64,000 bases of DNA, from NCBI GenBank assembly GCA_019338205.1, contig GCA_019338205.1_4761.1; one strand, given 5' to 3'. Under the pieces are notes generated by a model, which was not told where the DNA came from, did no database searches, and was given only the letters and a program-made list of their open reading frames with translations. Positions 23,115 through 23,813 of this stretch are shown here, piece after piece. Position numbers and translations under genes: made by a program. The stretch is from a phage. Within the stretch, counting starts at the first letter, position 1. Each line of letters starts with the position of its first letter.

Positions 23115-23813
23115 ATGCATACAATGGTTAAAATGGTCTTCGGATCTCACTTATACGGCCTTGATACTGAAAATTCCGATAAAGATTATCGTGGTATCTT
23201 TGTTCCGACTGCGAAAGAAATTATCTTAGGATCGATGAAAGAACACTATGATCAAAGCACTAGCGGTCAAGGTATCAAGAACACCAAAGACGATATTGAC
23301 GTTAATATGTTCAGTCTAAAACGGTTTATCAATCTGGCATGTAAAGGCGATATCGGCGCTATTGACATGGTGCACGCGCCTAGTAACATGTTGGTTGAAT
23401 CCTCCAGAGAATGGGAATACATCCGAACACATCGCGATAAATTCTATCATGTTGGGATGTGGGGTTTGTCTGGTTATCTCAAGAAACAGGTAGCTAAATC
23501 TGAAAAGTATTTCAGTAACTGGAAAGATCTTTCTCATGCTCTGCGTGTTGGTTATCAGCTACTTGAAATCTATCAGACAGGTGATCTACAATTCCCGCTC
23601 GCGCGACGTTCTTCTATTTTAGCGTGTAAGTTAGGAGAAAGAACCTTTGATAATGTGCGGGAAGAATTGAAAGATCTCTACGAGCGTGTTAAACTCGCGC
23701 GTGAAGAGGCAAAGAAAAACGGTATGCCGGAAGAACCAGATGTTGACTTTTGGAAAGATTTATTAGAATATATTCATCTGACCGTTGTTCTGGAACACTA
23801 TACCCGTGGTTAG
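23115..23813 (+). CDS. Pol-beta-superfamily nucleotidyltransferase with helical C-terminal domain (KNTase/ANT-like)
   Basis: FGSHLYGLDTENSDKDYRGIF (G[S]-x9-13-DxD) plus downstream DIDV; C-terminal helical part with R-x4-H (RDKFYH). Confidence 0.55.
   Translation: MHTMVKMVFGSHLYGLDTENSDKDYRGIFVPTAKEIILGSMKEHYDQSTSGQGIKNTKDDIDVNMFSLKRFINLACKGDIGAIDMVHAPSNMLVESSREWEYIRTHRDKFYHVGMWGLSGYLKKQVAKSEKYFSNWKDLSHALRVGYQLLEIYQTGDLQFPLARRSSILACKLGERTFDNVREELKDLYERVKLAREEAKKNGMPEEPDVDFWKDLLEYIHLTVVLEHYTRG

Follow-up and report, generated by a model that had tools for sequence, protein, structure and literature searches.

A 232-residue protein encoded in a phage contig (GCA_019338205.1_4761.1 of NCBI GenBank assembly GCA_019338205.1; its 64,000 nucleotides are hereafter called the window) is most likely an enzyme that restores nucleotides at RNA 3′-ends and works with the phage tRNA repair machinery, as judged from the biochemistry of its family and from the genomic surroundings of its homologs. 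The gene is the Krischvirus ortholog of T4 nrdC.11 and belongs to the RlaP (PF10127) branch of the Pol-beta nucleotidyltransferases (NTases). Our confidence in the family membership is much higher than that in the whole chain, i.e., RlaP-type nucleotide addition to RNA 3′-ends that aids phage tRNA repair, to which we give a little better than an even chance, and confidence in the in vivo substrate is lower. The gene itself is already known: it is annotated as a nucleotidyltransferase in public genomes, filed in Pfam under RlaP, and discussed in the literature as probably accessory to RNA repair. What is new here is limited to the insert-less, minimal form of NrdC.11 that Krischvirus carries. 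An original prediction, made from the DNA letters of the window, had described the protein as similar to kanamycin nucleotidyltransferase (KNTase) and as lacking an obvious T4 counterpart.

Family Membership and Orthology to T4 nrdC.11

Pfam assigns the window protein to PF10127 alone (RlaP, “RNA repair pathway DNA polymerase beta family”), at 54.1 bits where the gathering cut-off is 23 (E = 2.3e-14), and the match is colinear, residues 7–191 of the protein lying on model positions 24–198 of 249. PHROGs placed it in phrog_388, “nucleotidyltransferase” (E = 2e-79), and PF10127 is present in all 120 homologs listed from a large protein collection. An exhaustive phmmer search retrieved 3,559 cluster representatives at E ≤ 1e-3, and homologs were located by tblastn in 1,621 phage records, mostly of T4-like phages and additionally of Mycobacterium, Gordonia, and Bacillus phages. 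The NCBIfam profile search of the protein gave no match, the best PADLOC match was not significant (E = 0.031), and PDB sequence searches with either the single sequence or a 40-sequence profile returned chance matches only, e.g., haemoglobin and an S-adenosylmethionine sensor. The homology search and structure prediction proposed together with the original prediction have returned an NTase family and, as described below, an NTase fold.

The 2.3-kb region around the gene is 96–97% identical to that of 59 Krischvirus genomes, including RB49, Phi1, and ECD7, and phage kvi encodes a 100% identical protein. In the RefSeq record of Phi1 the gene is named nrdC.11, with the product “nucleotidyltransferase.” Furthermore, BLASTP against T4 NrdC.11 (336 aa) aligned the two proteins over the full length at E = 1e-51, with one gap of ~104 residues; identity over aligned columns is ~46%. 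The protein does have a T4 counterpart, contrary to what had been proposed, and this was probably overlooked because the gene has been relocated: T4 nrdC.11 follows directly after mobD and closes the nrdC.1–.11 block, whereas the Krischvirus gene lies between vs.6 and regB, ~13 kb from nrdC. The two proteins share the same invariant NTase and helical residues and both phages encode the end-healing enzyme Pnkp and the RNA ligase Rnl1, whereas the ~104-residue insert that T4 NrdC.11 holds between two C-terminal helices is absent from the window protein.

A homing endonuclease gene is found directly 5′ of an nrdC.11 homolog in two different genomic settings. T4 mobD (L001:3238–4017) overlaps the start of nrdC.11 (4001–5011) by 17 nt, and in a Krischvirus-like contig (L009) an HNH/NUMOD4 gene (3951–4547) is inserted between vs.6 and nrdC.11 (4569–5273). 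Homing may have recurred at the 5′ end of nrdC.11, and the relocation of the gene could be connected with this. Many NrdC.11 homologs in GenBank and UniRef (P0017, P0020, P0035, P0056, and others) are called ‘thioredoxin’ and one is called ‘HNH homing endonuclease’; all of these carry PF10127, and these labels look as if they stemmed from the gene name nrdC or from adjacent genes.

Predicted Structure and Conserved Residues

The open reading frame (ORF) and the Pol-beta NTase signature of the original prediction are both borne out, the motifs being present as FGSHLYGLDTENSDKDYRGIF at residues 9–29 and DIDV at residues 60–63. Invariant positions in a 40-sequence alignment of relatives are G10, S11, D22, D24, D60, D62, D84, W136, K137, H141, and R144. 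The comparison was extended to phage RlaPs that are 22–29% identical to the window protein (those of Trax, DrSeegs, TsarBomba, Xoo-sp15, and Guacamole), in which the GS motif and the acidic residues are kept together with the helical signature K137, H141, and R144 and usually Q148, K/R172, and G174. D84, H87, and Y14 are clade-specific and are not kept in these distant members. From its h-D-h context, D62 is the probable third catalytic carboxylate, and the catalytic set of a Pol-beta NTase, comprising hG[GS], [DE]h[DE]h, and a third acidic residue, is intact.

AlphaFold2 with the 40-sequence alignment gave a confident single-unit model (predicted local distance difference test, 91.6; predicted template modeling score, 0.88), which consists of a β/α NTase domain at residues 1–95 and of helices only at residues 98–230, in agreement with the all-helical C-terminal half that had been expected. 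The model also matches the verbal description of the PfRlaP crystal structure, in which an NTase domain and a helical domain are separated by a cleft (Carruthers et al., 2025; 10.64898/2025.12.29.696909). The nearest solved folds are those of Hailong HalB and kanamycin nucleotidyltransferase. A Foldseek search against the PDB ranked ANT(4′)/KNTase at the top, followed by LinB and AAD(9), with E-values of ~1e-5 to 1e-4, template modeling (TM) scores of 0.27–0.46, and identities of 10–13%. MNT-HEPN complexes are among the weak fold matches, and the C-terminal domain resembles HEPN-like bundles. Thus, the KNTase/MNT-HEPN architecture of the original prediction stands at the level of the fold and falls at that of the family, since RlaP is the only Pfam match at E ≤ 1, PADLOC gave nothing significant, and no HEPN partner was identified among the neighboring genes. 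The R-x4-H motif cited in its favor does occur, as R107 to H112, but does not hold as a HEPN-type motif: R107 is conserved, whereas position 112 in the 40-sequence alignment is Thr in 34 sequences, Ser in four, and His only in the window protein. Because His112 is not conserved, the motif is a chance spacing.

RlaP Activity and the Proposed Role of NrdC.11

RlaP is reportedly the ‘RNA ligase-associating Pol-beta’ of Burroughs and Aravind. The RNA ligase Rnl1 requires a 3′-OH and a 5′-phosphate, and these are the ends that RlaP and Pnkp would produce.

The biochemistry of the family has recently been described in a preprint by Carruthers, Fatma, and Huang for two Pseudomonas enzymes, from P. 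fluorescens and P. aeruginosa, whose genes lie between rtcB and rtcA (Carruthers et al., 2025). These RlaPs label E. coli RNA and neither DNA nor protein, and they place one to two NMPs or dNMPs on RNA 3′-OH ends with a preference for Mn2+. On a nicked-tRNA mimic the broken anticodon end is favored over the acceptor end; full-length tRNAs and rRNA-sized species are also labeled, and there is little NTP specificity. Addition by RlaP prior to ligation partly restores aminoacylation of a tRNA that is missing one anticodon-loop nucleotide, and the compatibility of 3′-OH and 5′-phosphate ends is unproblematic for 5′-phosphate ligases (Carruthers et al., 2025). Previously, Iyer et al. reported that RlaP and RNA ligases are distributed alike in jumbo phages and predicted that RlaP restores RloC-removed nucleotides ahead of ligation (PMC7824862). 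The RloC lesion has been considered one that could defeat T4 repair (PMC2610378).

The window protein shares with RlaP the colinear model match and the three acidic residues, and its predicted NTase and helical architecture resembles the one described for the family. It differs in belonging to another sequence cluster than the assayed Pseudomonas enzymes and in being encoded outside an RNA-ligase operon, and its likely partner is the 5′-phosphate ligase Rnl1, not RtcB. From the family biochemistry we infer that the Krischvirus protein shares the activity of the bacterial RlaPs and that its in vivo substrate is a nuclease-trimmed tRNA. In the proposed pathway, a host anticodon nuclease of the RloC type would cut a tRNA and remove a nucleotide, and the ends would be healed by Pnkp (pseT). 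NrdC.11 would then replace the missing nucleotide by adding one to two untemplated nucleotides to the RNA 3′-OH held in the cleft between the NTase and helical domains, through a two-metal mechanism via D22, D24, and D62 in which the metal is probably Mn2+, and the break would finally be sealed by Rnl1 (rnlA). Among the roles originally suggested, modification of a nucleic acid end is consistent with the family biochemistry, whereas nothing found points to aminoglycosides, proteins, or immune signaling nucleotides.

Genomic Context and RNA-Repair Genes

Phi1 encodes pseT (Pnkp), rnlA (Rnl1), and a second polynucleotide kinase (PNK)-like ORF, all of which fall outside the window by coordinate mapping to Phi1. 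All 59 Krischvirus records with nrdC.11 also contain the segment with pseT and rnlA, as judged from the matching organism and host breakdown of the two sets of 59. The three Phi1 regions inspected contain no annotated rnlB. The second PNK-like gene, present besides pseT, is ORF229 (L005:25341–25817; 158 aa; ‘polynucleotide kinase’), which adjoins nrdB.

The neighbors of homologs were surveyed at 80 IMG/VR loci encoding NrdC.11-clade proteins that are 39–55% identical to the query, apart from one locus (L014) whose protein is the same as the query, corresponding to 55 non-redundant lineages at 80% identity. The 10-kb flanks were screened with Phi1 RnlA and PseT, T4 RnlB, E. coli RtcB, and the PNK, ligase, and Ro proteins of Trax. 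An RNA-repair gene, i.e., one for an Rnl1-type ligase, RtcB, or PNK, lies on the same strand within 3.5 kb at 15 loci, representing 8 of the 55 viral lineages. An Rnl1-type ligase gene accounts for three lineages (at 207, 681, and 3,426 bp), RtcB for four (at 1.5–1.9 kb), and PNK for one, in which the gene is 3 bp away and is accompanied by 17 tRNAs and a Ro-like gene. Furthermore, tRNA genes are found in the flanks of the homolog in eight lineages. In annotated genomes, the genes for PNK, RNA ligase, RlaP, and a Ro-like protein form a block with tRNAs in Gordonia phage Trax, and the homolog in Roseobacter phage DSS3P8 is located inside a tRNA array. This pattern gains its weight from recurring with PNK, Ro, tRNAs, and ligases of two unrelated families, as it does in bacteria, where it served to define RlaP.

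Evaluation of the Proposed Role and Its Alternatives

Several observations weigh against a role of NrdC.11 in tRNA repair. RlaP activity has been shown for bacterial homologs, namely the two Pseudomonas enzymes, and for no phage member; T4 NrdC.11 is itself placed in the RlaP family, in cluster 5 of the sequence similarity network, as ‘function unknown’; and random nucleotide addition gives a correct tRNA in only a fraction of events, a weakness acknowledged by the authors (Carruthers et al., 2025). The closest solved fold belongs to HalB, which synthesizes DNA and does not repair RNA. In the genome, ~75 kb separate nrdC.11 from pseT and rnlA, and the genes directly beside it are uninformative on RNA repair. 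The enrichment of RNA-repair neighbors is modest: the 8 of 55 lineages compare with 6–10% expected from our own rough estimate, made without a proper control set, for a random gene in a 170-kb phage with two such loci. No RNA-repair neighbors were found at several homologs, including those of Guacamole, DrSeegs, and the Herelleviridae phages. Finally, T4 tolerates an nrdC.11–mobD.3 deletion in the laboratory (PMC9825161), which fits an accessory counter-defence gene and lends no positive support.

Four other explanations were considered, and for none of them does the positive evidence go further than a similar fold or gene proximity in particular lineages. NrdC.11 may tail RNA 3′-ends other than those of broken tRNAs, serving either the decay of RegB- or Pnkp-processed mRNA by 3′-exonucleases or the blocking of host tRNA acceptor ends in host shut-off. 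Both versions have precedents, as RegB and Pnk process phage mRNA and NTase toxins of the MenT type block tRNA acceptor ends; in Krischvirus, regB lies ~860 bp downstream and is transcribed in the same direction, and the bacterial RlaPs do label intact tRNAs and rRNA-sized species with little regard for the NTP. However, the proximity to regB is specific to Krischvirus, the T4 gene adjoining mobD; the RlaPs favor the broken anticodon end over the acceptor end; and genes for ligases, PNK, and tRNAs, but not for nucleases, recur beside the homologs in other phages. We consider tailing of such ends unlikely. Nucleotidylylation of a small molecule, as performed by KNTase, LinB, and AadA, or AMPylation of a host HEPN ribonuclease, as performed by MNT antitoxins, would accord with the top Foldseek matches, the HEPN-like C-terminal bundle, and the presence of MNT-HEPN complexes among the weaker ones. 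These resemblances are distant, whereas RlaP is the sole Pfam model matched: ANT(4′)/KNTase, LinB, AadA, and AAD(9) are 10–13% identical to the window protein with a TM-score of ~0.4 and no Pfam match reported, and enzymes of the KNTase type take small molecules as substrates, in contrast to the RNA ends used by RlaP. MNT-HEPN shares with the window protein the minimal NTase motif (GS...DxD) and a HEPN-like bundle, but is a two-gene module with a catalytic R-x4-6-H, whereas the window protein is a single polypeptide with no HEPN match among its neighbors and its relatives do not conserve the motif. Moreover, the bacterial RlaPs left E. coli proteins unlabeled, and antibiotic modification is of no evident use to a lytic phage; modification of small molecules or proteins is thus quite improbable.

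A polymerase resembling HalB, making short and perhaps self-primed oligo(deoxy)nucleotides as a signal or decoy, e.g., to keep the HalA channel closed, is still less probable. Hailong HalB (PDB 9dbh, 9dbi, and 9dbj) uses its own tyrosine as the primer for long poly-dA and has the HalA channel as its partner. The window protein is 13% identical to it, with no detectable sequence similarity in single-sequence or profile searches, and no HalA-like partner was identified among the neighboring genes; RlaPs halt after one to two additions and do not label protein; and the candidate priming residue Y14 is not conserved in distant RlaPs (the position of the HalB tyrosine was not compared). Since the fold is closest to that of the Hailong guard enzyme and RlaP accepts dNTPs, a counter-defence polymerase is conceivable, in which short oligo(deoxy)nucleotides would mimic or replace the host immune ligand and, for example, shut DNA-gated channels of the HalA type; this scenario is highly improbable. 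A role in nucleotide metabolism tied to ribonucleotide reductase (RNR) and redoxins appears equally remote. Genes for RNR, thioredoxin, or glutaredoxin adjoin the homologs in T4 (the nrdC block) and in the Herelleviridae phages TsarBomba and Xoo-sp15, and DrSeegs has an NrdH-like gene nearby, but the Krischvirus gene is ~13 kb from nrdC and has nonetheless been retained, early-gene blocks commonly mix unrelated functions, and no RNR-related chemistry is known to use a fold of the NrdC.11 type, which counts against this role. The proximity of RlaP to RNR and redoxin genes across Herelleviridae, a mycobacteriophage, and T4 may reflect early-gene clustering. Loci of this RlaP/RNR type are L008 (1–2920 and 3950–4723), L011 (2279–3409 and 4950–5711), L006 (3968–4714 and 5406–5672), and the T4 locus, L001.

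Probable Loss of the α/β Insert in Krischvirus NrdC.11

Nearly all close relatives of the window protein are 305–350 aa in length and match it in two stretches. In these long forms, the ~104-residue insert is positioned between the helix ending at ~130 and the W-K-x2-S-H-x2-R helix, carries conserved KYGxKGSR and YGERA motifs, and forms a separate α/β module in the predicted structure of a T4-type protein. It is absent from the window protein and homolog P0002 and present in nearly all other clade members. Short forms (the window protein, P0002, P0141, P0154, and P0232) are colinear with the Pfam RlaP model, whereas the match of T4-type forms breaks at model position ~142; therefore, the canonical RlaP core gained the insert in the NrdC.11 clade. 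In a neighbor-joining tree rooted on distant phage RlaPs, calculated without support values, the window protein and P0002 are located ten nodes deep among long forms only. Because the window protein nests inside the long-form NrdC.11 proteins, the Krischvirus short form is best read as a secondary loss of the insert that has left the canonical RlaP core.

Short motifs that resemble each other, (K)YG and (E)YG, lie on the two sides of the insert in long forms, and the junction in the short form reads K-S-E-K-Y-F. At the level of these motifs, this suggests that the insert was lost by deletion between short repeats.

Gene Signals and Immediate Neighbors

The coordinates of the gene, its signals, its protein domains, and its immediate neighbors are collected in Table 1. 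The terminator expected upstream of the gene is present: the hairpin has a folding energy of -15.6 kcal/mol (z = -4.0 against shuffles) and is conserved in Phi1 and one IMG/VR relative, and the intergenic stretch around it has one base changed per 131 nt relative to Phi1. Promoter-like sites in the region upstream of nrdC.11 are no commoner than in shuffled sequence, and therefore the promoter in Table 1 is weak and a candidate only. ORFs on the minus strand within nrdC.11 are short (51 and 73 aa).

Table 1. Positions of nrdC.11, its protein features, and adjacent elements in the window
Feature	Position	Strand	Basis
nrdC.11 ortholog, RlaP-family (PF10127) nucleotidyltransferase, 232 aa	23115..23813, including stop codon	+	ATG-to-stop ORF, PF10127, phrog_388, Phi1 name, T4 homology
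N-terminal Pol-beta NTase domain, residues 1–95	23115..23399	+	AlphaFold2: β1, short helix, β2 ... β at 61–67
G10-S11	23142–23147	+	Invariant in 40 relatives
D22, D24	23178–23186	+	Invariant in 40 relatives
D60, D62	23292–23300	+	Invariant in 40 relatives
C-terminal all-helical domain, residues 98–230	23406..23804	+	AlphaFold2 model
Junction SEKYFSN, residues 129–135, where T4-type proteins hold the ~104-residue α/β insert	23499..23519	+	Alignments
Family-wide helical signature K137, H141, R144, Q148	23523–23558	+	Plus K172, G174
Shine-Dalgarno GAGGG	23103–23107	+	7 nt 5′ of ATG, sequence inspection
Intrinsic-terminator-like hairpin and U-run, closing the upstream vs.6 gene	23038–23072	+	10-bp GC-rich stem
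Candidate sigma-70-like promoter TTGGCT, 17-nt spacer, TG-TATGAT	23056–23084	+	Consensus match only; overlaps terminator tail
vs.6 homolog, upstream gene, GrcA-like ‘spare part’ glycyl-radical protein	22612–23028	+	PF01228, E = 1.5e-16
Three tandem small ORFs directly 3′ of nrdC.11, paralogs	23835–24029, 24026–24271, 24329–24664	+	phrog_6261, phrog_15978

The neighbors are those named in the original prediction, a grcA-like gene upstream and three small paralogs downstream. The vs.6 homolog is labeled pyruvate formate-lyase or autonomous glycyl radical cofactor in some records. The small downstream ORFs match one another pairwise at E = 1e-13 and 1e-4 and share the pattern G-K-[LM]-Y ... C-x-[HY]-L ... 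W; beyond them lie the genes for RegB, vs.1, vs, and a macro-domain tk.4 homolog. The tk.4 homolog (26150–26605, plus strand; macro domain PF01661, E = 1.3e-6) is labeled ‘phosphatase’ in PHROGs. No tRNA genes were found within the window. A function derived from the neighbors (the GrcA-like vs.6 homolog, the small paralogs, or regB) was considered and rejected, as none of these links also holds in T4. The 57B homolog (15444–15914, plus strand), an ‘RNA ligase’ in RefSeq Phi1, was likewise rejected as a partner: it is Acb1 (PF23474, E = 1.5e-51), which acts against the cyclic oligonucleotide-based antiphage signaling system (CBASS). It gives a weak 2H-phosphoesterase signal only, and the RefSeq product name is misleading.

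Perspective

The repair idea is already in print as a prediction, its chemistry has been shown in bacterial members, and the window adds no new kind of system. The naturally minimized Krischvirus NrdC.11 would be a convenient construct for asking whether the conserved core suffices for activity. The question of whether nucleotide-excising nucleases defeat phage repair in vivo dates from 2008. If the proposed role is correct, NrdC.11 would supply the third enzyme so far missing from the classic T4 pathway of tRNA repair and would be the phage answer to RloC-like, nucleotide-excising anticodon nucleases, which should defeat simple healing and sealing.

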